This document shows positions 772 to 39,988 of a stretch of DNA of 64,000 nt, piece by piece. A program made the position numbers and the translations under genes. The notes below the pieces were generated by a model. That model worked only from the letters and a program-made list of their open reading frames with translations. It searched no databases and was not told the origin of the DNA. Each line of letters starts with the position of its first letter. The first letter of the stretch is position 1. Source of the stretch: Candidatus Woesearchaeota archaeon (GTDB lineage Archaea; Nanobdellota; Nanobdellia; Woesearchaeales; JACPBO01); the NCBI GenBank assembly GCA_030651135.1, contig JAUSCS010000006.1, forward strand, positions 522,160-586,159. Reading direction: 5' to 3'.

Positions 772-1569
772 ATGGAAAATCAAACAAAAATGGAAACAAA
801 AAAACCCTTGGAGATACTGGTAATAGAAGATACCCCAGAATTTATGGAAGTAGCTAAATCAGTTTATGATAATGACACGAACATTATTCCAAGATATGCT
901 TCAACATATGAAGAGGCAATAAAAATATTAAAGGAGACTGAGGTGCAGTGTGTTATTTCAGATTTATTCTTTCCTTCACAAATTGATTGGAAGGGAAAAT
1001 ATGCTGGTGAAATAGAAGAAAATAGAAACTCTTTCGTAAAAGAACAAAGGGAATTGCTTTTAACAAAGTATTCAGAAGAGGAAATTAAACAAGCAGAAGA
1101 ACAAGTTAAGCAGGGGTTAAAGCCGAAAAATCCCTTTAATTTCGGATCACCAAGAGTGCAGCTAAGTCCTGCGTACGATTTTATAGAATTGATAGAACAA
1201 CAAATCCAACGTACCAGTGAATATCAGGGCCTCCAAGAAAATCCAGCAGGATTGGGGATCGCGTCATATTGCTTGAAAAATCAAGTTCCTTTTGGAATCA
1301 TAAGCCAAGGAGAAAGGCACAGAGGAAATCTAGCTATTGTTAGACAAGCTGTACAAGAAGTCAAAGAATTTAGGAATGTAAATAATGATTTCCTACCATA
1401 CGTTCTTTTTTGCTCGAGTGATTCAAATGGTGAAATGGATAAAAGAAACCCGCAGATATGGAGAGACGCTATTTATGGGGAAGGCAGTCTTTTTGGACCC
1501 TCGCGTCAAAAAATTTTAAAAGATATGTTTGACGCTTATGAACAATTAGAAGAAAAATTAGCAAAATAA
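772..1569 (+). CDS. hypothetical protein
   Basis: 265-aa ORF with strong SD (AAGGAGGT, 7 nt upstream). No recognisable family; N-terminus LEILVIEDTPEF is vaguely receiver-like but lacks canonical motifs. Confidence 0.5.
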   Translation: MENQTKMETKKPLEILVIEDTPEFMEVAKSVYDNDTNIIPRYASTYEEAIKILKETEVQCVISDLFFPSQIDWKGKYAGEIEENRNSFVKEQRELLLTKYSEEEIKQAEEQVKQGLKPKNPFNFGSPRVQLSPAYDFIELIEQQIQRTSEYQGLQENPAGLGIASYCLKNQVPFGIISQGERHRGNLAIVRQAVQEVKEFRNVNNDFLPYVLFCSSDSNGEMDKRNPQIWRDAIYGEGSLFGPSRQKILKDMFDAYEQLEEKLAK

Positions 1570-1593
1570 AAAGGATAAAAAAGAAAGGAGGAA

Positions 1594-2049
1594 ATGAAAA
1601 TGGAAAACAAAATATCGTTGGAACAATTTGAAAGTGAACTTGGAATTTTAGACCAAAAGGAGAGTGTTGATAGGATTAGCACTCTTTTCGAGAAGGTTAG
1701 TCTAGAATCCTTACTTGACGCTTTTAAATCTGCAGAATCTGCATGGATTCAGGAAGGTACCCACGAGATGGGCTTTTCATATAAACAGGTAGTCGCAGCA
1801 AAGAAGGTAGGAAATGCTCTATATTATTTTGAAGTTAAGAAAAATGATGACCCAAATGATGACTCTATTGATATTACGAGAGATGAATCTAAAAGACAAC
1901 CTACATACGACTCCCCCGTATTTGGACCGCAAGTATCTGCGAATAAAGATATCGCGGAACGACTTGTTAGCTATGGAAAATCTTTACTTTGGGAGAATGG
2001 CGAGCTGGAGCATGAACAGATGGGTAGGCGTGTCTACAGAATCAGATAA
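1594..2049 (+). CDS. hypothetical protein
   Basis: 151-aa ORF preceded by GAAAGGAGG. No recognisable motif. Confidence 0.5.
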   Translation: MKMENKISLEQFESELGILDQKESVDRISTLFEKVSLESLLDAFKSAESAWIQEGTHEMGFSYKQVVAAKKVGNALYYFEVKKNDDPNDDSIDITRDESKRQPTYDSPVFGPQVSANKDIAERLVSYGKSLLWENGELEHEQMGRRVYRIR

Positions 2050-2116
2050 ATTGTGCCGGTCATCGGAACAAACTTAATTTTTTTTATTTTTTTAAATTAA
2101 ATCAAACAAGGAAATA

Positions 2117-3106
2117 ATGAAAATGTCAAATAAAAAGATACTTCGTGGGCTGCCTGCTCAATTAGAGGCAGAGAAGAAACTAGGAGAATCCGAGTTAGAT
2201 TATCTTCTCTTCAATCTCCCTTATGCATGTAATCTTAAATGCCCGAAATGTTTTGTAGGAGATAATAAAACAGCCTTACATCTAAGCTTAGATGAAAGAA
2301 TGAGGGTTATGCGAGAGGCAAAAGAGCTTGGCGCAAGAGTTGTTGTAATACCTGGTGAAGGCGAGCCATTGATCGCACCGGCAATAAAAAAAATAGCGAG
2401 CTACAGATATGGTTTAGGGTTAACGGCTGTTGTTTTTACAAATGCTACAATGTTAAATGAAGATTTTGCGCATTTTGCAAAAGATACCGATATTTCATTT
2501 ATAGTCAGTTTGGATTCTTTAGATAAGGGCGCATATGGGTTTTTGACAGGCAGAAAAGACTTTTTCGATGAAACAATAAAGAATATTGAAAGATGCCGCT
2601 CAATTTATGCTGATGAGAATAGCTCCACGCCAAATGGCGATAAAGTTGTAAGACTAGCAGTAAATACTGTTGTAACGAAACAAAATAAAGATGAAATAAG
2701 CAAAATTAAGGATTGGTGTGGTGATGATATGGTGTTTATATGTAATTCTCCTGTAAAAGAAGGAAGAGCAGCACAGTATTGGAAAGAACTTGCTGGGACT
2801 GAAGAAGAATATCGGGAATTAAAACAAGTTGCATTGAAAAATTCAGAAACACATGGGCCAACTTCTGCCTGTTCTGATGGAAAGTGCGCATATCTTTATT
2901 ATGGGCTTACGATAGGAACAGATGGCGATGTTCTTATATGCCCTGACGCAAGAGAAACAAGAGGGTTGATAGGAAATGTTAAAGAAGCCAGCCTCAGAGA
3001 ACTGAATAAAAAGCACAAACAACATCTGAAAGCGTTTTTTGAAGAATGTGGTTATGGGCCCTGTATTGTAAGGCATCCAAAATATAAGGGAGTCGTTAGC
3101 AAATAA
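2117..3106 (+). CDS. radical SAM enzyme with C-terminal Cys-rich auxiliary (SPASM/twitch-like) domain
   Basis: CNLKCPKC = CxxxCxxC. Gly-rich SAM-binding motif VVVIPGEGEPL. C-terminal cysteines CSDGKC...ICPD...CGYGPC. Paralog of the ORF at 42670. Confidence 0.8.
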   Translation: MKMSNKKILRGLPAQLEAEKKLGESELDYLLFNLPYACNLKCPKCFVGDNKTALHLSLDERMRVMREAKELGARVVVIPGEGEPLIAPAIKKIASYRYGLGLTAVVFTNATMLNEDFAHFAKDTDISFIVSLDSLDKGAYGFLTGRKDFFDETIKNIERCRSIYADENSSTPNGDKVVRLAVNTVVTKQNKDEISKIKDWCGDDMVFICNSPVKEGRAAQYWKELAGTEEEYRELKQVALKNSETHGPTSACSDGKCAYLYYGLTIGTDGDVLICPDARETRGLIGNVKEASLRELNKKHKQHLKAFFEECGYGPCIVRHPKYKGVVSK

Positions 3107-3218
3107 GATGTTATTAGGTATACCGTCTTGTACCCCTTTACAGGATCATATTTTACACTCAAAAAACAAAATCTTTATATAGTAGTTTATACTACACTTA
3201 TGTAGTAGGATTGATAAT

Positions 3219-3428
3219 ATGGTTTATTTCACAGATATAGAGCCAACTGATCATTATCTTGAGGAACATGAGAAAGATGTTCCATGGGACAAGGTTGTAG
3301 AGATTATATTTACCACAAAAAATCCAAGAAAGAAAGGATATAATTATGAGATTGAAAAAGACGGCTATTATATCCTGTTTGAAATGAAAGATAACATTTT
3401 GTATGTGATAAATGCCAAGAAAGAATAA
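3219..3428 (+). CDS. small protein, DUF4258-like (putative toxin component)
   Basis: 69 aa, His-x...EIEKDGYYILFEMKDNILYVINA pattern resembling DUF4258. TATA-like TTTATATA ~40 nt upstream. Confidence 0.4.
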   Translation: MVYFTDIEPTDHYLEEHEKDVPWDKVVEIIFTTKNPRKKGYNYEIEKDGYYILFEMKDNILYVINAKKE

Positions 3429-3439
3429 AAGGTGAAAAA

Positions 3440-3775
3440 ATGAAGTGCCCAAAATGCGATTCGAATTTAAATAAGGTAGAGGTCAAAGTACATGGAGCTC
3501 AAAGCAAAGCAATCAGTTATCAGTGCCCAAAATGCGATTATTTCGAGTTTGATCCTATTTCTTCTGCTCAAGTAGTTGAAGAACTGAGGGAAACTCCTTT
3601 AAAAATAAAGCAAAAGATTGTAAAGCTATCTCAGGATAGATTAGGCATCTACTTTAACAGCCATGTAGTAAGAAGCTTAAATATGAAAAAAGGAGAGGAA
3701 ATCTACGTATCTGTTCCAGATAAGAAGCACATACTTCTTGAACTAAAGGCTCCAGAAATCCCGGGCAATAATTGA
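3440..3775 (+). CDS. zinc-ribbon + AbrB/SpoVT-like DNA-binding protein (putative antitoxin/regulator)
   Basis: Two CPKC pairs at the N-terminus. C-terminal GIYFNSHVVRSLNMKKGEEIYVSV resembles a swapped-hairpin AbrB fold. 12-nt gap from the previous ORF. Confidence 0.5.
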   Translation: MKCPKCDSNLNKVEVKVHGAQSKAISYQCPKCDYFEFDPISSAQVVEELRETPLKIKQKIVKLSQDRLGIYFNSHVVRSLNMKKGEEIYVSVPDKKHILLELKAPEIPGNN

Positions 3776-3788
3776 ATAAAAAAGAATC

Positions 3789-4223
3789 CTATTTCTTCTG
3801 CTCTGCCTGCTCAGAAACCTTTGGAAGCGGTATGGGAGGCGGAAGGTTGATCTCTCTGCTCAGGATCAAGGCTTCTATGTTGCATCTCAGCAAGATGCTG
3901 TTCAGCACTTCAGCCATGATCTCCTTTGAAACATTCTTGCTCTTCTTCCATTCCTTGATGATTTCCTTCAGCTTTTTATCATCATCAATATAGATAATCT
4001 CTCCATTAAGCTCTATTTTTCCTATGTCGGGATCGTATTTAGAATCAAACTTGAACGAGAACTTAAGCCCTTTTTCATCAGCCTTGCCAAATGCCAGGTC
4101 AGTCTCTTCTATGTTCGTTATGTTTACATTGTTCGATATGTTTATCTGCCCTACTGCAGGCTGCTTTCTCTCAACTTCTATTTTTGTAAAATTAAATCCG
4201 ATCATTGTCATAAATATCACCAA
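3789..4223 (-). CDS. hypothetical protein
   Basis: 144-aa ORF, hydrophobic N-terminus, no identifiable motif. Confidence 0.4.
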   Translation of the reverse strand: MVIFMTMIGFNFTKIEVERKQPAVGQINISNNVNITNIEETDLAFGKADEKGLKFSFKFDSKYDPDIGKIELNGEIIYIDDDKKLKEIIKEWKKSKNVSKEIMAEVLNSILLRCNIEALILSREINLPPPIPLPKVSEQAEQKK

Positions 4224-13607: not shown

Positions 13608-16538
13608 ATGGAGCTAAAAAAAATAAACGAATTTACGTGGCAGATACCGAAAACAGGCAACATGAAGGTTCCTGCAATAATCTATGCTTCAGAGAAGCTG
13701 ATAGAGAAGATAAAGCAGGACTTGACATTAAAGCAGTCGGAGAATGTTGCAGCATTGAAAGGGATCCAGACAGCATCATATACAATGCCAGATGCTCATC
13801 AAGGATATGGGTTTCCTATCGGTGGTGTTGCTGCGTTCGACATGGATGAAGGCATTATAAGCCCTGGCGGTGTTGGTTATGATATTAATTGTTTAACGGA
13901 AGATGCAAGAATATTGACTGAGCAAGGATATTTCAAAGAAATAAGAGAGTTCGAACATGATTTTATAGAAGTTGAGAACCTTAATTCAAAATATGCCTTG
14001 AAATCAAAAATGTGCCAATTAAAGGTAATTTCATTTGACTCTTCCCAAAATTGTTTTTCTTCCAAACAAGTTAATTATTTTATGAAGAAAAAACATTTTG
14101 GTTCAATTGTCAACATCAAAACTAAATTAGGATATGCCATTCAGTTAACAGAAGAACACCCGATATTATCAAAGTCAGGTATGATTGAATCTAAACTATT
14201 AAATCAAGGAGAACAAATAGCAATAAATCCTTTTGAAGGGGTTGAGTTTGAAAAGACTAAAGAGGATTTTATTTTAGCCACAGAAAATGAATTTGAAAAA
14301 AAACAGAGAGAAGAACTAATAAAAAGGGAGATTTTACCATTAAGATTAACTAATAGTAAGCTTCCAATCATAACAAAATTGTTCGGATATTTGCTAGGAG
14401 ATGGAAGTATCTATATAAGCAATGGCAAGGGAAGGATATGCGCATTTGGTCAGAAAGAAGATCTTTTGGAAGTAAAAAGCGATTTTGAAAAACTTGGATT
14501 TTCTGCAAGGATTTATGGTAGAACAAGAGAACACACTATTGAAACTCAATATGGGAAAAAAATATTTTCAGCTAAAAATTATGAATTGCATGTATCTTCT
14601 ATAGCATTAACCAATTTATTCTTTAAATTGGGGTACCCTAAAGGAATAAAAACTTCAACTAAATTTTTAATACCTAGCTGGATAGTAGGGAGCCCTAAAT
14701 GGATGAAGCGATTGTTTATATCAGCCCTATTTGGAGCAGAGTTATCTAGCCCAAGAACCCATACAAAAACAGGTTTCGATTGCCCTGTCCTATCAATAAA
14801 TAAAATAGAAAATCGAGTAGAAAATGGAAGAGAATTTTGCATCCAATTGATGAATTTGCTTGAAGAATTTGAAGTAAAAACAGATAAAATAATTGAAAGA
14901 AAAGAATATAAAAACAAACAAGGAGTGACCTACAGGATAAGACTTCAAATTTCTTCAGAAGAAGATAATCTGATTAAGCTTTGGTCAAAGATTGGTTTTT
15001 CCTATAATCGAAAGAGAGATATTCTGTCCAAAATAGCAATACTGTACATTAAAGAAAAAAAGAACCTTGCTGGAATACGATCAGAAATTGCTGTCAAGGT
15101 AAAAGATTTTAAGAAGAAAGGGTTAAAGCTCAAAGAAGTCCAAAATTTATTAAAAAATGAATATGTGAATGATCGCTTTATAGAACGACATTATTACGAA
15201 AACGCAGGACAGAGAATTTCTTTAAATTTCATATCCTTCGAAGAATTCAAAAGATTGAAATTAAATGAATTTGAAAAATATGGCTTATTTTTTGATTTTG
15301 TCATTTCTGTTTCAAAAGTACCATATGAAGGAGATGTGTACGATCTAAATATAGATAAAACACATAATTTTGTAGCAAATAATATCATAGTTTCGAATTG
15401 CGGCGTCAGACTATTAGCAACAGACTGGGCTGAAAAAGACATTGCTGCAAAAAGAAAAGAATTGCTTAATGAGATCTTCAAAGAAGTCCCTGCAGGAGTT
15501 GGAAAGTCAGGAATCACAAAATTAAGCAAAGATATTTTGATGGAAATTCTGAAGAAAGGCGCAAGATGGGCTTTAGAGCAGGGTTATGGGACAAAAGAAG
15601 ATCTGGAAAGAACAGAAGAAAACGGCTGCATGAAGGCTGCTGATCCAGGCACAGTTTCTCAAAGAGCTTTAGAAAGGGGAATGCCGCAGTTGGGAACATT
15701 AGGAAGCGGAAATCATTTTCTGGAAATACAGAAAGTTGATCAAATCTATGACATAGAAACTGCAAAAGATTTTGGAATAACTGAAAAAGGCCAGATAACT
15801 GTTATGATACACTGCGGATCCAGAGGATTGGGGCATCAGGTTGCTTCTGATTATATCAAGGAAATGGAAGAAAAGCACGGGATAAAAGATCTGCCGGACA
15901 GGGAACTAGTTAATGCTCCTATTAATTCAGAAACAGGCCAGAGATACTATAAGGCAATGTGCTGCGCAATAAATTATGCTTTTGCAAACAGGCAGATGAT
16001 AGAGCACTGGACAAGGGATGTTTTCAATAGAATAATGGGCAGCTCAGATGGGATGAAGCAAGTTTATGATGTCTGCCACAATCTTGCTAAATTTGAAAGG
16101 CACAATGTTGATGGAAAGCAGAAATTAGTCTGCGTTCACAGAAAAGGCGCAACCAGAAGCTTTGGTCCAGGAAGAGAGGAGATTCCTGATGTTTACAGAA
16201 GCATTGGACAGCCGGTGATAATCCCTGGATCAATGGGAACTGCTTCGTATTTATTGGTTGGAACGAAAAAAGCAGAGGAGATCTCCTGGGGATCAACAGC
16301 CCACGGCGCAGGAAGAGTTGCATCAAGGAGTGAAGGATTAAGAACATTAAGAGGAGAGCAGGTTGCGCATGATCTTGAAAAGAAAGGCATAGAAGTCAAG
16401 GCAACATCATGGAAAGGGATCGCAGAAGAAGCTCCCCAGATGTACAAGGACATTGATGAAGTTGTCAGAGTTTCTCATGCGCTTGGGATCGGGAATATGG
16501 TCGTAAGATTAGTGCCGTTGGCAGTGATGAAAGGCTAG
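13608..16538 (+). CDS. rtcB: tRNA-splicing ligase RtcB, intein-containing
   Basis: Extein motifs PDAHQGYGFPIGGV and GGVGYDIN|CGVRLL are split by a 503-aa insertion. The extein total of 473 aa is normal for RtcB. Confidence 0.9.
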   Translation: MELKKINEFTWQIPKTGNMKVPAIIYASEKLIEKIKQDLTLKQSENVAALKGIQTASYTMPDAHQGYGFPIGGVAAFDMDEGIISPGGVGYDINCLTEDARILTEQGYFKEIREFEHDFIEVENLNSKYALKSKMCQLKVISFDSSQNCFSSKQVNYFMKKKHFGSIVNIKTKLGYAIQLTEEHPILSKSGMIESKLLNQGEQIAINPFEGVEFEKTKEDFILATENEFEKKQREELIKREILPLRLTNSKLPIITKLFGYLLGDGSIYISNGKGRICAFGQKEDLLEVKSDFEKLGFSARIYGRTREHTIETQYGKKIFSAKNYELHVSSIALTNLFFKLGYPKGIKTSTKFLIPSWIVGSPKWMKRLFISALFGAELSSPRTHTKTGFDCPVLSINKIENRVENGREFCIQLMNLLEEFEVKTDKIIERKEYKNKQGVTYRIRLQISSEEDNLIKLWSKIGFSYNRKRDILSKIAILYIKEKKNLAGIRSEIAVKVKDFKKKGLKLKEVQNLLKNEYVNDRFIERHYYENAGQRISLNFISFEEFKRLKLNEFEKYGLFFDFVISVSKVPYEGDVYDLNIDKTHNFVANNIIVSNCGVRLLATDWAEKDIAAKRKELLNEIFKEVPAGVGKSGITKLSKDILMEILKKGARWALEQGYGTKEDLERTEENGCMKAADPGTVSQRALERGMPQLGTLGSGNHFLEIQKVDQIYDIETAKDFGITEKGQITVMIHCGSRGLGHQVASDYIKEMEEKHGIKDLPDRELVNAPINSETGQRYYKAMCCAINYAFANRQMIEHWTRDVFNRIMGSSDGMKQVYDVCHNLAKFERHNVDGKQKLVCVHRKGATRSFGPGREEIPDVYRSIGQPVIIPGSMGTASYLLVGTKKAEEISWGSTAHGAGRVASRSEGLRTLRGEQVAHDLEKKGIEVKATSWKGIAEEAPQMYKDIDEVVRVSHALGIGNMVVRLVPLAVMKG
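13890..15398 (+). mobile_element. intein with LAGLIDADG homing-endonuclease domain inside rtcB
   Basis: Begins at Cys (CLTEDARIL) right after GYDIN. Ends ...VANNIIVSN before the C-extein CGVR. LAGLIDADG blocks LFGYLLGDGSIY and LFISALFGAE. Confidence 0.8.
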
Positions 16539-16539
16539 A
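16505..16539 (+). repeat. 35-bp direct repeat copy 1 (3' end of rtcB)
   Basis: AGATTAGTGCCGTTGGCAGTGATGAAAGGCTAGAG. Second copy at 17846..17880 with one mismatch. Confidence 0.8.
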
Positions 16540-17335
16540 GCTGCTTCGCTTTAACATTTTTTCTATAAATGAAGACAATAGAAACCAGATATCCGAAGTA
16601 AGAAATAATTTCTAACAACGAAGGATCTCCATTATATCCGAACAGTGATTTCAAAATACTCCCAAAATTGCCATTCTCGTTTATGATGTTGTTCGTATTC
16701 CAAACATGTTCAATTGTAATGGGCAACAAGCTTGCTTCTTGAAACTCATGAACGCCATGCGCAATAAGACCGGCTGCAAATAATGTAAGCAGAATGCTCG
16801 TTATATTGAAAAATAACTTCAAATTGATCCGTTTTATGCTGAAGAAAAACAAATAACCCAAAATTAATGCGCTGACAATTCCGATTAAGGCCCCTATGAG
16901 ATTGTTCTCTTTACTGACAAAATTAGCTGCTCCGAGAAAAATAACAGTTTCAACACCCTCTCTTAATACTGCAACCAGGCTAAGAAAGAACAATCCAAGC
17001 TCATGCTCCATCTCCACCTTTTTGGATACTTTCTCTCTTATCTCCTTAACATGGCTCTTTTTCATCATCCAAAATATCATATAAGTCAGTAGAATCGCAG
17101 CTGCAAACATTGATATGCCTTCAAATATCTGCTCAGCTTTGCCTTCAAATTCCCCAATAAAAAACTTAAAAATAAATGCAGTTATAACGCTTAAAACCAA
17201 ACCAGAAATCACCCCAAACCATACAAATTTAGCATAGTCTTTCCTTTTTATTTCATAAAGATATGCGAGAATTATTCCTATAACCAATACTACTTCTAAA
17301 GTTTCCCTGAATGTTATTATTGCGCTGGTTAGCAT
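16535..17335 (-). CDS. FTR1-family high-affinity iron permease
   Basis: Two RExxE motifs (RETLEVV, REGVETV) and multiple TM segments. Start set at the internal Met (MLTSAII) to avoid overlap with the regulator gene. Confidence 0.8.
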   Translation of the reverse strand: MLTSAIITFRETLEVVLVIGIILAYLYEIKRKDYAKFVWFGVISGLVLSVITAFIFKFFIGEFEGKAEQIFEGISMFAAAILLTYMIFWMMKKSHVKEIREKVSKKVEMEHELGLFFLSLVAVLREGVETVIFLGAANFVSKENNLIGALIGIVSALILGYLFFFSIKRINLKLFFNITSILLTLFAAGLIAHGVHEFQEASLLPITIEHVWNTNNIINENGNFGSILKSLFGYNGDPSLLEIISYFGYLVSIVFIYRKNVKAKQL

Positions 17336-17739
17336 TGGATTCGCACCTTTATTGGCTTCCCATGGGGGCAATAAGCTGGGTTTTTCATAATTAAGCTCAT
17401 CTTTTTAACAGCCAAGTCAGATAATGCATGCTCTATCTTGTTTGCTTCATTATGCACCTGGCTTAATTTTAAGCCCAGTATCTTGCTTAAAAATAATTCA
17501 ATAATCCTGTGTTTGTATGTTAATTGCCTGCCTTCAATCAATCCTTTTTTTGTTAGCTTTAAAGGCCCGTATGGCTTTACAGAGATTAATTTATATTTTG
17601 ACAGCTTGCTTAACATCTCAGAAACACTGGCTTTTGATATATTCAGGTATTTTGCCAGATCAATGGATCTGACCTCTCCTTTAGACTCCTCGCTAAGATG
17701 GTATGCTGCCCTGATATAATCTTCTTTTGAAAAGTTCAT
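17329..17739 (-). CDS. DtxR/MntR-family metal-dependent transcriptional repressor
   Basis: N-terminal HTH (IRAAYHLSEE...SIDLAKYLNISKASVSEMLSKL) and metal-binding region. Confidence 0.8.
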   Translation of the reverse strand: MNFSKEDYIRAAYHLSEESKGEVRSIDLAKYLNISKASVSEMLSKLSKYKLISVKPYGPLKLTKKGLIEGRQLTYKHRIIELFLSKILGLKLSQVHNEANKIEHALSDLAVKKMSLIMKNPAYCPHGKPIKVRIQC

Positions 17740-17742
17740 AAA

Positions 17743-17758
17743 GTTAGGTATGCCTAAC
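17743..17758. promoter_or_regulatory. DtxR-box-like palindrome 4 nt upstream of the DtxR start
   Basis: GTTAGGTATGCCTAAC (arms GTTAGG/CCTAAC), resembling the TTAGGTTAGCCTAACCTAA iron-box consensus. Confidence 0.5.
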
Positions 17759-17845
17759 TCATATATAAATGTTGCGGTTTAAGCATGCTTTATTTTGGCA
17801 TATGAAGCTGCCAGGCTTTCACATCAGTCAGGGATATAGTTGTCA

Positions 17846-17880
17846 GATTAGTGCCGTTGGCAGTGATGAAAGGGTAGAGA
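17846..17880 (+). repeat. 35-bp direct repeat copy 2 (duplicate of rtcB 3' end)
   Basis: AGATTAGTGCCGTTGGCAGTGATGAAAGGGTAGAG. 34/35 identical to 16505..16539. Confidence 0.8.
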
Positions 17881-17968
17881 AGCCATGATTTGCTTAACTA
17901 TTGGTAAAATCTATTTTTGTACAGATCTTTAAGTAAAATTTATATATCCTATTATATATCGGTTATGT

Positions 17969-18682
17969 ATGCATGATGCAATCCGTAAACACACACAAAA
18001 TATTAAGAAATTTCATGACAATAAAATACGCAGATATTATAAGTTCATACCCCTAATTGGGTTGATATTGTTATTAATGTTATTCTCATCTCAAAAAAAT
18101 CAACCTGACTCCACACCTATAGTAAAGCAAAGCTTCGTTGAAAGATTATCTGATTCGTGGTATGATGTTTCAAACTCATTCAAATTTGATGGATTAATTG
18201 ATGTTTTAATAACAACAATACTTTTAATAACTATATGGACTGGGTATAAGTATTGGCTTCTTAGATTAAGATACATACGAAATAACGCTAACCTGCTACA
18301 GAATATAATTATTGTAATTATGCTTTTCATTTTTGTTGACAGGCACATTAAACTTGATTCCTTTTTAGGTCAGTACATAGATTGGATATTATTTTTGATA
18401 TTCCTTTACATAATCTTAGCTGGAAGCTGGTATCTTGCAAAAACTATTGATAGAATCGACCTGACATCTGATTTATATTGTTGGGGTTTAAGGATAATCG
18501 CAACAATAGTCATCTTTATTGGCGTAAATCTATTCTTTTCAAGTGCATTTGTACTAACATTTTCTAATTCTAAACTAGTATTTGATAACATTTATTGGAT
18601 ATTGAGCATATGCTTAATACTTCTAGGAGCATTCATGGGTTTCAGATCTGTCAGAAGGTATCCGATGATTAAGATATGGTAG
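17969..18682 (+). CDS. polytopic membrane protein, hypothetical
   Basis: 237 aa with ~6 hydrophobic helices. Confidence 0.5.
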   Translation: MHDAIRKHTQNIKKFHDNKIRRYYKFIPLIGLILLLMLFSSQKNQPDSTPIVKQSFVERLSDSWYDVSNSFKFDGLIDVLITTILLITIWTGYKYWLLRLRYIRNNANLLQNIIIVIMLFIFVDRHIKLDSFLGQYIDWILFLIFLYIILAGSWYLAKTIDRIDLTSDLYCWGLRIIATIVIFIGVNLFFSSAFVLTFSNSKLVFDNIYWILSICLILLGAFMGFRSVRRYPMIKIW

Positions 18683-18724
18683 GTCTGAACAAAACTTTTC
18701 TCAGAAAAAATAAGAATTCCTGTT

Positions 18725-18791
18725 TAGGTGACTACAAAATAGCCTAAATGTAGTCACCTAATACCAAAACATTTAAATATGTAGTCACCTA
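18725..18791. promoter_or_regulatory. three copies of the 12-nt motif TGTAGTCACCTA (one inverted) upstream of the Fic gene
   Basis: TAGGTGACTACA at 18725-18736 (inverted), TGTAGTCACCTA at 18749-18760 and 18780-18791. Confidence 0.5.
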
Positions 18792-18800
18792 TATTATTCT

Positions 18801-19751
18801 ATGCACGTTGAGAAAAGAAAGGCAGGAAAGCGAATAAAGTATTTTTTGGCGCATTCTTACAGGGAGGGCGCTAAGGTTTACAAATTCAGAAAATATCTGG
18901 GGCAGGACATAGATTTGCTGGAGGAAAGGAAAAAAATAGCTGAAAAGCTTATCCTTGAAGAAATACACAAATACAAAATCATAAAAGATCCGCTTCAGGT
19001 GGAACTTTCAGAAGAAGAGATAGCTTCAATAAGAAAGCTTGAAGCTCAAATACCCTTAAAAATAAGCCATTTATCAGAAGGAGACTGGAAAGAATTCTCA
19101 GAAATATTCACATACAATACCAATGCCATAGAAGGAAGCAGATTAAATCAGGAAGAAGTGAAAGAGCTGCTGGAAAAAGACAAATGGCCCAATAAGTCAA
19201 AAGAGGATATTGCAGAAGCATTTGGAGTGGATGAATCAATTTCATATATTCGAAACACAAAAGAGCATATCTCATTAGAGCTCATAAAAAAAATGCATAA
19301 GATTGTGTTCAAAAATTCCAAGCCATTTGCCGGAAAACTGAGAAAAAGAGGTGAAGAAGTAGTTGTCATGGGCAGCGGGGGAAATGTTGTCCATGAAGGA
19401 GCGCCGCAGGCAAGAATAAATCATCTTCTGCGCGGTTTGGCAGAATGGTATGAAAAGAACAAAAATAGGTATCCTGGATTGATTCTCGGGGCAGTTGTAC
19501 ATAACCAATTTGAGAATATTCATCCGTTCAGGGATGGAAATGGGCGAGTGGGAAGAATCTTGCTAAATAATATCCTCATCAAGCATAATCTGCCCCCGAT
19601 AAACATAGATTTCAGGAACAGGGCAGAATACTATGCATCTTTGCAGGCATATGAAAAAAACCATGATTTAAAGCCCACAATAGAGCTTTATATGAAAGAA
19701 TACAATGAATTAAAGAAAAAACTTGGCAACCACAAAACAAAGAAAGCCTAA
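18801..19751 (+). CDS. Fic/DOC-family protein (putative AMPylase)
   Basis: Canonical HPFRDGNGRVGR motif. Confidence 0.8.
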   Translation: MHVEKRKAGKRIKYFLAHSYREGAKVYKFRKYLGQDIDLLEERKKIAEKLILEEIHKYKIIKDPLQVELSEEEIASIRKLEAQIPLKISHLSEGDWKEFSEIFTYNTNAIEGSRLNQEEVKELLEKDKWPNKSKEDIAEAFGVDESISYIRNTKEHISLELIKKMHKIVFKNSKPFAGKLRKRGEEVVVMGSGGNVVHEGAPQARINHLLRGLAEWYEKNKNRYPGLILGAVVHNQFENIHPFRDGNGRVGRILLNNILIKHNLPPINIDFRNRAEYYASLQAYEKNHDLKPTIELYMKEYNELKKKLGNHKTKKA

Positions 19752-19771: not shown

Positions 19772-20398
19772 TTATATCTCAATAATCTTCCCTTTCTTCC
19801 CGACATTTATGACCCTTGTCTTCCCAACCATTTCTTCTATGCCTTCTGCCTCATGCACATGGGAGCAGAGCAGAATGTCAGGATGGAATTTTTCTATTGC
19901 TCTCTTTATTCCTGAGCTGCCTGGAAAGAACTGCGTGAACTTCTCCATTTTTGTTCCTGAAGGATGCACATGTGTAACCATTATCTTCTTGCTTAACTCC
20001 TTTATTTTGTCAAAGCCTTTCTTCAGCAGATCATAAATCTCTTTTTCATCCATCTGAAACAATCCAATATTGGCGCCGCCTGCTCCAAAGATTCCTACAT
20101 TGCCGTATTTCACAGAATAGCCATGAATATTCTTCACTCCATAAACTTCAGCAAGAAAATCCGCTGTTGCAACTGTTTCATGATTTCCTGGAATAAGCAA
20201 AACTTTCTCATTCCTTTTTTTAAAAGGACCGATTAAGTTTGTTGTTGACCTGTCTCCCATTGTCAGATCGCCGCAAAGAATAACCAAATCAACATTTTCC
20301 CTTTTTGCCTGCTCTGCCAGCTTCTCAGCCAGGCTCATGTCGCCGTGTATATCTCCAGCGGCAAGTATCTTCAGTTTTTTATCAGTTTTCTTTTCCAT
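19772..20398 (-). CDS. calcineurin-like metallophosphoesterase
   Basis: GDIHGD, GDL, GNHE motifs. Confidence 0.8.
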   Translation of the reverse strand: MEKKTDKKLKILAAGDIHGDMSLAEKLAEQAKRENVDLVILCGDLTMGDRSTTNLIGPFKKRNEKVLLIPGNHETVATADFLAEVYGVKNIHGYSVKYGNVGIFGAGGANIGLFQMDEKEIYDLLKKGFDKIKELSKKIMVTHVHPSGTKMEKFTQFFPGSSGIKRAIEKFHPDILLCSHVHEAEGIEEMVGKTRVINVGKKGKIIEI

Positions 20399-20433: not shown

Positions 20434-21048
20434 CTATCTTTTTATGACCTTTTCATTGTCAGTCAGATCAATTATTGTTGAAGGCCTGCCTTTTTTCTCT
20501 CCTTCATATAGTATGAAATCAATCTTCACCTTTATTTCAGGATCAAGATTATCAAGCGATGTCATGAAATCCTTGCCAATTACATTGGCAGATGTTGTCA
20601 CAATCGGAGCATTCAGCTCAGCAGCAACCTCACTGAACCAATGGTTTGGAATTCTAATGCCCAGAGTATCAAGATCAGAATTCACATTTGGAGAAACCGC
20701 ATCCTTTTTTTTCAGTTTTAGAATCAGGGTATATGGTCCGGGCAATTTATTAATCCATTTTTCTGCTTCTTTTGAGACTTCGCAGTTTTCCCTGATCCAT
20801 TCTTTGGAAGGGGCAATAATTGAAAAAGGCCTTGTATATCGCTGCTTCGCTTCCCTTACTTTTTTTACCGCTCCAAAATGCCTTGCATTGCAGCCGATTC
20901 CATAGATTGTGTCAGTAGGATGAATAAATGTAGCGCCATTTAATATCCCCCTCAAAATTGCTTCCTTGTTTATCTTGAATTCATCTTTATTTATGATTTC
21001 CATGATTTTCAGGAATGCCTTATGGTTTATAAAGCTTGTTATATGCAC
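20434..21048 (-). CDS. tsaC: L-threonylcarbamoyladenylate synthase (Sua5/YrdC/TsaC family)
   Basis: YrdC-domain pattern TDTIYGIG...TLGIRIP...SAN. Confidence 0.75.
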   Translation of the reverse strand: MHITSFINHKAFLKIMEIINKDEFKINKEAILRGILNGATFIHPTDTIYGIGCNARHFGAVKKVREAKQRYTRPFSIIAPSKEWIRENCEVSKEAEKWINKLPGPYTLILKLKKKDAVSPNVNSDLDTLGIRIPNHWFSEVAAELNAPIVTTSANVIGKDFMTSLDNLDPEIKVKIDFILYEGEKKGRPSTIIDLTDNEKVIKR

Positions 21049-32894: not shown

Positions 32895-33902
32895 TTATAA
32901 ATCTTTAATTTTATCTAAATGTTTTTTATTGGAAAAGCCAATTTCTTTTATAAATTTATTAACGTTTTCAAAGCCATTAATTTGAATAACATGTTTTCTG
33001 CCATTAATATATGCTCTTGGATTTAAATTAAGGTTTTTTAATATATTGTAAACTTGGTTCATTAAAGGTACACTTACCGTGCCTAGTTGTACTCTTAAAT
33101 ATGGCGTTTTGTAAATTTTTCTTTTATCATAAAAAATACAGCCGTCAGTATCATAAATGCCCCTAATACAATTAGTAATTGATTTTTGATCCTCAGAATT
33201 AACAATTTCATCAGGTATTGTTACAGTATATGATTTTTTACCAGATGGAAATTTGAATCTTTTTGTCAATAAATTATAAAATTCCTTGGAGTATATTGTC
33301 ATTCTCATCGTATTATCTTTTTCCGTAATGATTGGATTTGAATTTGGGCTCATTTCTTTAATAATTGGTTTTAGAGTTTCAACAATGTATTCTTTATCGA
33401 GTTTAGAATGTCCTGTAAATTGAATCATATACATGCCGCCATATTTATTGGTAAACCCATCTCCTATAAATGCGCCAATTAATTCGCATAATTGCGGGGT
33501 TAGAGGCGTATCAAATTGAAAATTATACCTGCCGCATCTAGCACTTTTAGCTCCAATCTTTCTTCCTTTTTCAAAAATATATCTGTGTTTTTTATAAGTA
33601 GCAAGCCCCCCTTTAATCATCCCCCAATTTCTATCTTTTAAGAAGATTTGTTTATTAAAGAAGTTGTTATCATCTGTGCTTAAATGAGACAATAAATCTA
33701 AGAAAGTAGAATAAGGTATTGAAATATCACCATCTCTTAAATGTTCTAGTCTTGATTTATAAATGCCAAAATGCTTTCTTAATTCTTTCCATGTACCGAA
33801 CTGAGCCTTAAGCTTAGCAAAGAATTCATCCCTGATAGTATCATCTCTAAAGAAGACTCTTTTAGAAAGCAATTCTTCATTGAGTGATTTTTTATTTTTC
33901 AT
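32895..33902 (-). CDS. free-standing double-motif LAGLIDADG endonuclease-like protein
   Basis: LCELIGAFIGDGF and IRGIYDTDGCIFYD motifs. Paralog of 39122..39880. Confidence 0.7.
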   Translation of the reverse strand: MKNKKSLNEELLSKRVFFRDDTIRDEFFAKLKAQFGTWKELRKHFGIYKSRLEHLRDGDISIPYSTFLDLLSHLSTDDNNFFNKQIFLKDRNWGMIKGGLATYKKHRYIFEKGRKIGAKSARCGRYNFQFDTPLTPQLCELIGAFIGDGFTNKYGGMYMIQFTGHSKLDKEYIVETLKPIIKEMSPNSNPIITEKDNTMRMTIYSKEFYNLLTKRFKFPSGKKSYTVTIPDEIVNSEDQKSITNCIRGIYDTDGCIFYDKRKIYKTPYLRVQLGTVSVPLMNQVYNILKNLNLNPRAYINGRKHVIQINGFENVNKFIKEIGFSNKKHLDKIKDL

Positions 33903-39103: not shown

Positions 39104-39210
39104 AAGGGCCCGGTGGGACTTTCAAAGCCAAAGTTTTGAACCTTCAGCCAATTTGAACCCACAATCTTCCGCTCTGCAGGCAGACGCCTTGCCGGATTCG
39201 ACCACGGACC
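39104..39210 (-). tRNA. tRNA-Cys (GCA) with ~33-nt intron in the T-loop
   Basis: Acceptor GGGTCCG/CGGGCCC, anticodon stem TCTGC/GCGGA, loop CTGCAGA, variable AGATT, T-stem GTGGG/CCCAC enclosing a 40-nt loop that begins TTCAAAT. Confidence 0.6.
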
Positions 39211-39880
39211 CTTTCAGTAACCACAATCGACTTCTTAATGTTATTTTCGGCTTATAATAACCCAATCTCCTCCAAAGTAAATATTTTGTTAAATTTTTTT
39301 CTGTACTGAATCCAATCTCATTTACCCATTTCTTTAACATCATTGGCCCACTTAAATAGAGCCTTATCGTAGTATCAGATACTACAGAATTGCTAGTTAC
39401 TTTAAAATCTTTTTGTTTTAAGATGTTTTTTATTTGATTTAACAATTTTTCACTGCATGTCTTTATTTCTATTCTTGGGTAAGTGGGGTATTTGAATTTT
39501 TTACTTTTTGAAAAATATAAAGAGCCATCTGTTTCAAATATTCCGCGAATTATATGTTTGGAATATTTCCATTGTAAAAATTGTTTAGGTATTTCTGTAT
39601 TATGAGATTTATTTTTAAATTTTATTTTAATCTCATTTATCAAATATTCTACAAACTTTTTATTATTGAACTCTAATCTTAAGGATTCACCAAGTTTTTC
39701 TTTTTTGATTCTGGTTAGCGGCCTTTTTTTTGTTAGTTTATAAAGCAAGTTTGAAATCTTTAAAAAGTAATCTTTTTGCTCTTTGGCATTACCAGCGAAT
39801 TCAACCCTATATGTTCTGGGAGGGTTATAAATAATAGAACCATCTCCTATAAAAGCACCAATAAATTCATAAAAGTTCAT
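39122..39880 (-). CDS. free-standing double-motif LAGLIDADG endonuclease-like protein; 3' end overlaps tRNA-Cys
   Basis: FIGAFIGDGS and IRGIFETDGSLYF. Paralog of 32895..33902. The last ~30 codons read through the tRNA-Cys gene. Confidence 0.65.
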   Translation of the reverse strand: MNFYEFIGAFIGDGSIIYNPPRTYRVEFAGNAKEQKDYFLKISNLLYKLTKKRPLTRIKKEKLGESLRLEFNNKKFVEYLINEIKIKFKNKSHNTEIPKQFLQWKYSKHIIRGIFETDGSLYFSKSKKFKYPTYPRIEIKTCSEKLLNQIKNILKQKDFKVTSNSVVSDTTIRLYLSGPMMLKKWVNEIGFSTEKNLTKYLLWRRLGYYKPKITLRSRLWLLKGSVVESGKASACRAEDCGFKLAEGSKLWL

Positions 39881-39889
39881 TTTATAAAG

Positions 39890-39988
39890 CGGGCCTAGGA
39901 GGATTTGAACCCCCGACCTTCAGCTTAGAAGGCTGCCGCTCTATTTGCCTGAGCAAAGTTAGTTGCTCACCAGACTGAGCTATAGGCC
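39890..39988 (-). tRNA. tRNA-Arg (TCT) with ~25-nt insertion in the D-loop
   Basis: Acceptor GGGCCTA/TAGGCCC, D-arm GCTC-AGTCTGGT[insert]TAGAGC, anticodon loop CTTCTAA, T-arm GGGGG-TTCAAAT-CCTCC. Confidence 0.6.

Follow-up and report, generated by a model that had tools for sequence, protein, structure and literature searches.

How did two iron-related genes come to lie between two copies of the end of rtcB, the gene for the tRNA-splicing ligase, in a groundwater woesearchaeote of the DPANN archaea? The locus is part of a 64,000-nucleotide (nt) stretch of Candidatus Woesearchaeota archaeon (GCA_030651135.1, contig JAUSCS010000006.1, positions 522,160-586,159 of the forward strand), hereafter the window. 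The two genes, ftr1 for an FTR1-family iron permease and dtxR for a DtxR-family repressor, are a genuine insertion placed exactly at the rtcB stop codon, with the target both duplicated and reconstructed. As for their route, we favor, at about even confidence, a Campbell-type integration through a mimic of the rtcB tail that the cassette itself carried. Coordinates given without a locus number refer to the window; L-numbers denote fetched loci from other genomes or contigs.

The duplicated end of rtcB and the genes between its copies

A 35-nt core at the end of rtcB (13608-16538, plus strand; Pfam RtcB, E 3e-165) spans 16506-16540 and recurs at 17845-17879 with 34 of 35 bases identical. An earlier note on this DNA had described this repeat one base away from these coordinates; both copies are present and its 35-nt core stands, and the whole similarity is longer, reaching 52 nt at 88% identity without gaps (16489-16540 against 17828-17879) and 78 nt with one 7-nt gap (17802-17879 against rtcB 16456-16540). 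Copy 1, which resembles the left attachment (att) site, attL, of an integrated element, comprises the last 16 rtcB codons, the stop codon and 2 nt (16489-16540, plus strand), and within it 16506-16534 form the uninterrupted identical core. The core of copy 2, the attR-like one (17845-17879, plus strand), ends GGG TAG AG and, read in the rtcB frame, gives the RtcB C terminus, ...VRDIVVRLVPLAVMKG, followed by a stop. Nor is the 35-mer a generic repeat, which the earlier note had asked to be checked: with as many as three mismatches allowed, no other copy occurs in the 64-kb window, nor did any match arise in 100 dinucleotide shuffles.

The lone difference within the core is informative. The last glycine codon of rtcB is GGC in copy 1 (C16535) and GGG in copy 2, as it is in L001, the closest cassette-free relative (rtcB 98% identical in amino acids and 91.8% in nucleotides). 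C16535 creates a single CTAG (16535-16538) that serves as the TAG stop of both rtcB on the plus strand and ftr1 on the minus strand. The ftr1 stop exists only because this codon is GGC; GGG at this position, as in the remnant and in L001, would let ftr1 read through. The reading frame and stop codon of rtcB are still intact after the insertion.

The flanks reveal which copy is the original. Although the genes downstream of rtcB in L001 are quite different, the 40 nt following copy 2 (17880-17919, plus strand) match the 40 nt after the L001 rtcB stop at 25 positions in a fixed register (p = 6e-5), whereas the flank of copy 1 matches at 13 of 40, the chance level. Copy 2 and its flank are therefore the displaced original end of rtcB. 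On the cassette side of copy 1, the sequence from 16541 onward begins CTGCTTCGC; the rtcB core joined to G-TAG-AGAAGCCATG gives the expected sequence of the empty site. We rejected a tandem duplication followed by deletion, since copy 2 precedes the ancestral flank and not a second end of FTR1.

We compared the locus with 61 species-representative genomes and 80 metagenome contigs that carry a related rtcB (about 135 loci with 6-10 kb of flank). FTR1 or DtxR adjoins rtcB in none of them, and the comparison with related genomes proposed in the earlier note thus yields about 135 cassette-free rtcB loci, with the flank of the empty site visible through L001. The frame of radical-SAM gene, DUF2391 gene, archease and rtcB, followed at a distance by a metallophosphoesterase (MPE) gene and Sua5, is widely conserved, and the region 3′ of the rtcB stop is hypervariable; in some relatives (L059, L017 and L020) rtcB directly abuts the MPE gene with a gap of 0-55 nt. 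A protein search with the RtcB C terminus returned nothing above 82% identity and gave no closer cassette-free relative. The junction of rtcB with FTR1 is reproduced in L062 and L063, from other groundwater samples (95.5% nucleotide identity), and that of dtxR with the remnant in L064 and L066. Each junction is thus present in three independent assemblies including the window, which excludes an assembly artefact.

By Pfam, the copies enclose exactly two genes, as the earlier note had it, and these form a single minus-strand operon of about 1.3 kb with dtxR first. The ftr1 product (16535-17335, minus strand; 266 amino acids) matches PF03239 with E 1.7e-49, its domain scoring 169 bits against a cut-off of 25.3, and retains both REXXE motifs intact (RETLE at residue 10 and REGVE at residue 125). 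It belongs to the FTR1 family, and its role in transport is predicted. The dtxR product (17329-17739, minus strand; 136 amino acids) is a two-domain metal-dependent repressor of the DtxR/MntR family (PF01325 and PF02742). Its nearest solved relatives are 8pvt, SloR, ScaR and MntR, with DtxR also among the relatives in the PDB; an exact-protein look-up found no record of it. The N-terminal winged helix, the metal-binding and dimerization domain and a palindrome of the TTAGG...CCTAA type place it in this family, with iron or manganese as its possible metal and the palindrome as its putative operator.

The stop codon of dtxR overlaps the start of ftr1 (ATGCTAA), and the two genes are probably translationally coupled because of this overlap. 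The promoter and operator, read from the sequence, occupy 17742-17769 (minus strand). Here the dtxR ATG (17739) is separated from a TATA box (17762-17769, minus strand) by a palindrome resembling a DtxR box, AGTTAGGTATGCCTAACT (17742-17759), at the start of dtxR where the earlier note had placed one; the palindrome is the sole such box in the window. This layout of operator, TATA box and ATG is kept in four related cassettes, L064, L065, L066 and L150, the last being a dtxR-ftr1 pair elsewhere with 55% identity. The layout is that of a leaderless archaeal operon, predicted to be autoregulated. From what is known of the family, metal-loaded DtxR would occupy the operator overlapping the transcription start and shut off its own operon; under iron or metal limitation the repressor would be released, the FTR1 permease made and iron imported.

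A comparable arrangement has reportedly been found for archaeal DtxR-family repressors, among them that of Archaeoglobus fulgidus, where the DtxR-family protein MDR1 is said to be encoded by the first gene of a metal-uptake operon and to regulate itself. In both systems the repressor gene comes first, and the operator or operators lie across the transcription start, past the TATA box; the target of MDR1 is an ABC transporter, whereas the partner here is the FTR1 permease. In other Woesearchaeota (L148 and L149) FTR1 lies in a fixed chromosomal context without DtxR, and in bacteria of the Candidate Phyla Radiation (L156) it is paired with Rrf2; the dtxR-ftr1 pair thus constitutes a module of its own, found in several contexts. 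The composition profile of the cassette shows no GC anomaly, and scans with Rfam and for promoters and terminators found nothing relevant.

The remnant and its counterparts at other gene tails

Copy 2 is more than a displaced gene end. Beyond its core, the remnant has an outer part, the P arm (17802-17844, plus strand), a decayed rtcB-like sequence that matches rtcB 16456-16505. Of its 43 positions 13 are mismatched, mostly at non-synonymous sites, and a 7-nt deletion breaks the frame. The core has 1 mismatch in 35 (Fisher p = 0.002 for the difference, with the cut between arm and core chosen post hoc). The dtxR promoter region meets the outer arm at the same junction in the window, L064 and L066; the cassettes of the latter two are 83% identical (17% diverged) to that of the window. 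In L064 the arm ends before the core, and the left neighbor of FTR1 is not rtcB. Therefore the outer arm is linked to the cassette and old, and the core is young. The presence of GGC in copy 1 and GGG in copy 2 is, as judged from the sequences, the pattern expected for a reciprocal exchange inside the core. We looked for a flanking direct repeat in L064 and found none, and a second rtcB remnant in its left flank was rejected (best local score 22, against a mean of 24.8 for shuffled sequence).

This anatomy bears on a first alternative, homology-facilitated illegitimate recombination of linear foreign DNA, which we consider unlikely. A fragment carrying the 3′ part of rtcB with ftr1-dtxR as its natural neighbors would have joined by homology inside rtcB on one side and by an illegitimate join within the last ~85 nt of the recipient's rtcB on the other. 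Copy 1 would then be the tail of the donor and the whole remnant the recipient's own tail. Such an event needs no recombinase, and the attachment of the remnant to the ancestral flank agrees with it. However, it predicts uniform decay of the remnant, at odds with the contrast between arm and core, and cassettes that have diverged by 17% have the left junction of the remnant in common with the window, one of them with a left context other than rtcB.

A self-comparison of all fetched DPANN loci and the window (1.54 Mb) revealed a like architecture several times independently, each time a small operon at a gene 3′ end between duplicates of the gene tail. Two further cases lie at rtcB: L041/L141, with a 62-nt repeat around a PIN toxin and its AbrB/MazE antitoxin, and L134, with a 43-nt repeat around a nucleotidyltransferase and its partner. 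In L134 an alternative but valid RtcB end is encoded by the remnant, after which comes ATTATTAAT, as it does 3′ of rtcB in L133, the nearest relative and comparator of L134. At the archease gene of L041, a 94-nt repeat (1758-1851 and 3012-3105, 98% identical) encloses a Fic/DOC gene that sits between archease and rtcB. At oapB, for origin-associated protein B, a 68-nt repeat in L110 (8864-8931 and 11258-11325, with the same in L111) encloses two SPFH/Band-7 genes, and the empty site is seen in L026 and L102. These recurrent repeats are 43-94 nt long with the right end 0-3 nt from the stop codon, and the repeats of the rtcB tail begin 82, 60 and 43 nt before the stop. Every cassette is a complete operon, with little spare DNA at most junctions.

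The differences between repeat copies identify their origin. We counted 14 synonymous differences, stop-to-stop changes included, against 3 non-synonymous ones (P ~1e-6 under neutral decay), and the members of each repeat pair therefore go back to two functional alleles of the target gene. A two-allele origin excludes duplication within one molecule, whether by transposase-type target duplication or by template switching. We accordingly regard as highly improbable the group of explanations that comprises such a target-site duplication (staggered cutting by a transposase or casposase, or template switching), a chance or generic repeat and an assembly artefact. Direct repeats that flank an insert without an integrase would suit a target-site duplication, yet the repeats are far longer than known ones, and neither terminal inverted repeats nor a transposase accompany them. 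A chance origin meets a unique 35-mer for which no copies are expected, and an artefact the junctions reproduced in independent assemblies.

The same set of cases bears on the linear fragment from both sides. Copies that differ mainly at synonymous sites, like two functional alleles, are what it predicts, and so is a right limit at the stop codon in every repeat, where homology between donor and recipient would end. Illegitimate joins, however, should scatter along the gene, whereas the five remnants all measure 43-94 nt, with none beyond that length, and truncated gene fragments occur at no junction.

Other arrangements in the fetched loci were set apart from this count. The 36-nt repeat of L109 was not counted, as it is a gene's own tail duplicated upstream of that gene. 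A VapBC insertion in L149 relative to L148 carries no gene-tail repeat, so not every cassette insertion leaves one; this VapB-PIN cassette (L149 7386-8180, against L148 7414-7454) lies between VIT1 and PfkB, after four consecutive different hairpins. From rtcB through the PIN-AbrB cassette to exactly the last base of the remnant, where homology stops, L041 (7414) and L141 (2086) share 98.1% identity. Past this point a NUDIX gene follows on the plus strand in L141; in L041 the NUDIX gene is inverted (87% nucleotide identity) and accompanied by genes for a P-loop protein and a Dam-like methyltransferase. The remnant end is again a rearrangement breakpoint. Directly 3′ of the rtcB stop in L140 (2489-2650) and L139 (7451-7535) is a 40-nt tandem repeat, in four and two copies, respectively. 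Its unit contains a small hairpin and ends in rtcB-tail-like gattgcaattaaaggctaa, a gene-tail duplication of variable copy number.

Two non-coding direct repeats were also seen. One of 185 nt in L061 (3917-4101 and 6673-6857, 99.5% identical, with two hairpins) surrounds archease-rtcB, and one of 65 nt in L133 (16729-16793 and 18940-19004) surrounds a gene pair that includes a prepilin peptidase. They may be related insertion footprints or elements resembling miniature inverted-repeat transposable elements. In L065 (656-730, reverse), the MPE 3′ end has a 14-nt pseudo-copy (TATATCTCAATAAT, which matches the MPE tail of the window exactly) ~45 nt from the functional MPE stop, and a perfect 7-bp hairpin separates the two, a tail-duplication pattern in miniature.

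The search for a recombinase and the route of entry

No recombinase gene is encoded in any of the cassettes, and the statement in the earlier note that the cassette holds no integrase is borne out, FTR1 and DtxR being its only genes. Its suggestion to look elsewhere for an integrase of matching att specificity drew a blank in the cassette, the window and the related loci. Among 30 window open reading frames (ORFs) of 230-540 amino acids we found no integrase or transposase, and a regular expression for the tyrosine-recombinase motif found none over the 1.54 Mb. phmmer searches with the integrases of SSV1, lambda and psiM2 and with Cre gave no match even at E <= 10 among 2663 ORFs. Pfam tallies for 129 representative ORFs within 3 kb downstream of rtcB held no recurrent integrase, and no integrase-bearing element was found within 6-10 kb downstream of rtcB in the ~135 loci, a search that was non-exhaustive.

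These results bear on a second alternative, a decayed integrase-bearing element. A virus or plasmid, analogous to the cis-mobilizable elements (CIMEs) of bacteria, would have entered the rtcB tail and left only its att sites and the cargo under selection. Archaeal integrated elements typically have direct repeats of 35-62 nt that resemble att sites and lie at the 3′ end of a protein gene (PMC6563490), and CIMEs without recombination genes are common in streptococci (PMC7563491). The toxin-antitoxin cargo in two other cases would also resist deletion. Nevertheless, neither an integrase nor a fragment of one is present in any cassette or in ~150 loci around rtcB, and a full-size element occupies rtcB in none of the ~135 loci. 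Random decay is also unlikely to have trimmed intact operons to within 0-90 nt of both repeats in five independent cases. We therefore judge this history quite unlikely. The remnant of a larger element, which the earlier note had raised, is possible and not favored, because the independent cassettes are all clean single operons with almost no spare DNA.

Campbell-type integration, in which a circle enters a chromosome by a single crossover, leaves duplicated homology bracketing the insert and mosaic copies, and needs no dedicated enzyme. We favor this route for the dtxR-ftr1 cassette. The incoming DNA would have been the cassette joined to a mimic of the rtcB tail, in the order arm, core, C-TAG and FTR1 end. 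As the anatomy of the locus suggests, one reciprocal crossover between this mimic and the resident tail (core, G-TAG and flank) would have taken place within the 29-35-nt identical core. The observed products match this topology. The attL side is the intact rtcB, in which the last base before the stop codon also provides the FTR1 stop (CTAG); the attR side is a non-coding rtcB pseudo-tail made of the old decayed cassette-linked arm, the fresh core and the original downstream flank.

The catalyst may have been host homologous recombination over a stretch of ~30-60 identical nt, or a recombinase that acted in trans. Host recombination is slightly favored because targets and repeat limits vary between cases; in its favor are also that no integrases were found and that the right limit of the repeats is the point where homology ends. 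The narrow range of repeat lengths (35-94 nt), which matches that of archaeal att sites, and the repeated use of rtcB speak for a trans-acting site-specific enzyme. The archease and oapB targets carry unrelated cargo, and a single rtcB-specific integrase is therefore not required. The earlier note had read the locus as site-specific integration with reconstruction of the target. A real insertion with a duplicated and reconstructed target stands; the integrase mechanism, and with it the enzymatic sense of site-specific, is interpretation, and host recombination by way of an rtcB-tail mimic on the cassette is at least as good a fit.

Several observations weigh against the integration that we favor. 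The integrase searches used single-sequence phmmer, a motif expression and partial Pfam tallies, covered DNA near rtcB only and were non-exhaustive. We found no cassette-free chromosome closer than ~92% nucleotide identity and no circular or free form; IMG/VR and plasmid and phage collections held no match for the cassette or for a form carrying attP, and scans of viral contigs for the 29-mer core, FTR1 and RtcB, as well as plasmid and phage BLAST searches, were empty. Recent excision or integration, like current mobility, is thus conjectural. The context of L064 is known from a 1.8-kb contig alone. Short-tract gene conversion from the adjacent rtcB tail, in place of re-integration, could have kept the core identical. 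The mismatches between the window and L001 cluster only weakly in the last 40 nt of rtcB (p = 0.04), with other 40-nt windows worse, and we did not use them as evidence for a foreign rtcB tail. The cassette of L065 has no remnant; it has lost it.

The comparison with L065 also bears on a third alternative. Divergence between the window and L065 is similar for the cassette (92.9% nucleotide identity) and the flanking MPE gene (91.5%), which fits vertical inheritance within the genus over recent mobility. In an old, immobile insertion, the cassette would have entered once in the distant past and been inherited vertically, its core preserved by short-tract gene conversion from the rtcB tail; cassette-free relatives would have diverged earlier or lost the cassette by recombination between the repeats. 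The remnant junction shared with the 83%-identical cassettes of L064 and L066 is consistent with this. Many independent losses would be needed, however, for a cassette found in 0 of ~135 loci, including those with an rtcB that is 82% identical in amino acids. The left flank of L064 is not rtcB, and the origin of the duplicate is left unexplained. We hold this account to be improbable.

The surrounding region and the cassette among known systems

From left to right, the locus contains the radical-SAM gene, the DUF2391 gene, archease, rtcB with its intein, ftr1 and dtxR (both minus strand), the remnant, a membrane ORF, a Fic gene, the MPE gene and Sua5 (the last two on the minus strand). Variable sequence separates rtcB from the conserved MPE-Sua5 pair, and its remainder spans 17969-19751 (plus strand). 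It holds an ORF for a 237-amino-acid membrane protein of no known family (17969-18682, plus strand), an inverted-repeat motif (18728-18761) and the Fic/DOC gene (18801-19751, plus strand), to which the Fic protein of L041 is distantly related (30% amino acid identity). The MPE gene (19772-20398, minus strand) and Sua5/YrdC (20434-21048, minus strand) are both conserved and anchor the synteny on the right.

The motif upstream of Fic is an inverted repeat, AGGTGACTACA...TGTAGTCACCT, with a third half-site at 18781-18790. In L065, which keeps the cassette and this motif, the membrane ORF and Fic are both absent, and the motif (723-758, 97% conserved) directly adjoins the dtxR promoter. It could be an operator or a recombination scar. 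L001 has another island 3′ of rtcB (783-3845), with a 243-amino-acid membrane protein, two small ORFs, a 401-amino-acid QueC-like PP-loop protein and a weak HEPN-like ORF; it looks like a defence-type island in the same hot spot.

The intein in rtcB is a 503-amino-acid LAGLIDADG intein (nt 13890-15398, plus strand; Pfam Intein_splicing and LAGLIDADG_3) with limits set from the DIN/C and SN/C junctions, and its site is the catalytic DIN/C motif. Length variation among many related rtcB genes in the fetched loci suggests that the intein is variably present. Two free-standing ORFs with LAGLIDADG domains lie elsewhere in the window (32895-33902 and 39122-39880, both minus strand). The second is directly downstream of a partial tRNA match (39898-39954, minus strand; Rfam model positions 10-63, 33.5 bits), and the pair might be a tRNA gene, either disrupted or with an intron, together with a homing-endonuclease ORF.

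Integration into the 3′-distal parts of protein genes is known in archaea from the integrated mobile genetic elements (iMGEs) of Thaumarchaeota (PMC6563490), and crenarchaeal att sites measure 29-69 bp (cited in PMC6563490). The cassette resembles archaeal iMGEs in its direct repeat of the target tail, the gene rebuilt at attL and the old tail displaced at attR, a repeat length within the reported range and an empty site visible in relatives (PMC6563490). Those elements are multigene, 5-100 kb in size and carry a tyrosine integrase next to att (PMC6563490), whereas here a single 1.3-kb operon lacks any recombinase. Of the hallmarks of a tyrosine-integrase element, the direct repeats of target sequence and the empty site are present and the integrase beside att is absent.

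Streptococcal CIMEs lack recombination genes and occupy the 3′ ends of rpsI, rpmG, fda and rplL, with examples of 1.2-13 kb common at the first three (PMC7563491). Like them, the cassette is flanked by att-like sites, has no genes for recombination or transfer, brings adaptive cargo (transporters and metal-related genes in CIMEs) and uses the 3′ end of a conserved housekeeping gene (PMC7563491). CIMEs are bacterial, derive from integrative and conjugative or integrative and mobilizable elements at the same sites and are mobilized by accretion (PMC7563491); in contrast, no parent element at the same att is known for the cassette, and the use of several target genes speaks against one integrase specificity. 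The tycheposon islands of Prochlorococcus share a streamlined genome, cargo for the uptake of nutrients including iron, partial target copies left by successive integrations at one gene end, and variable islands downstream (bioRxiv 10.1101/2020.12.28.424599). They differ in having tRNA targets, tyrosine recombinases, replication modules and a bacterial host (bioRxiv 10.1101/2020.12.28.424599).

Other classes agree less well. Transposons and casposons are not matched by repeats of 35-94 nt with allele-type synonymous differences and neither terminal inverted repeats nor a transposase. Integron cassettes are not matched either, since the operon brings its own promoter and operator, has the rtcB tail and not attC as its boundary, and is without intI. 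The topology at rtcB is exactly the one that Campbell-type integration predicts; unlike the usual cases, with hundreds of bases of homology in a laboratory setting, the homology here is a gene tail of 30-90 nt. To our knowledge, the literature we searched holds no description for DPANN of natural, recurrent delivery of operons through gene-tail homology of this length.

The locus is one of a recurrent DPANN kind: a cassette flanked by att-like sites and without an integrase, at the tail of a protein gene. DPANN archaea have tiny, reduced genomes with few recognizable mobile elements, and their means of acquiring accessory genes are little understood. Together with its independent counterparts, this locus shows that gene gain at the ends of conserved genes, with no element-encoded recombinase, leaves a concrete and repeatable footprint, and the similar cassettes at gene ends in related archaea suggest a recurring route of gene gain for tiny genomes. 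Tentatively, and with more doubt than confidence, we propose that Woesearchaeota and Nanoarchaeota host undescribed minimal mobile units, each a recombinase-less single operon with a 40-90-nt mimic of a host-gene tail through which it integrates and excises. If so, their cargo would be iron uptake, toxin-antitoxin, Fic or SPFH genes and the mimicked tails those of rtcB, archease or oapB, with the mimic core refreshed from each host allele as the outer arm decays. This would amount to a general, enzyme-free mode of gene gain, driven by host recombination, for ultra-small genomes largely without integrases.

If the mechanism is confirmed, a gene-tail duplicate around a small operon, with copies that differ only synonymously, would become a searchable signature of transfer, usable for tracing recent gene transfer in uncultivated archaea. 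The region downstream of rtcB would likewise be marked as a hot spot for accessory and defence genes. For the organism itself, the cassette adds a predicted self-regulated importer of iron or another metal in a groundwater habitat where iron is variable.

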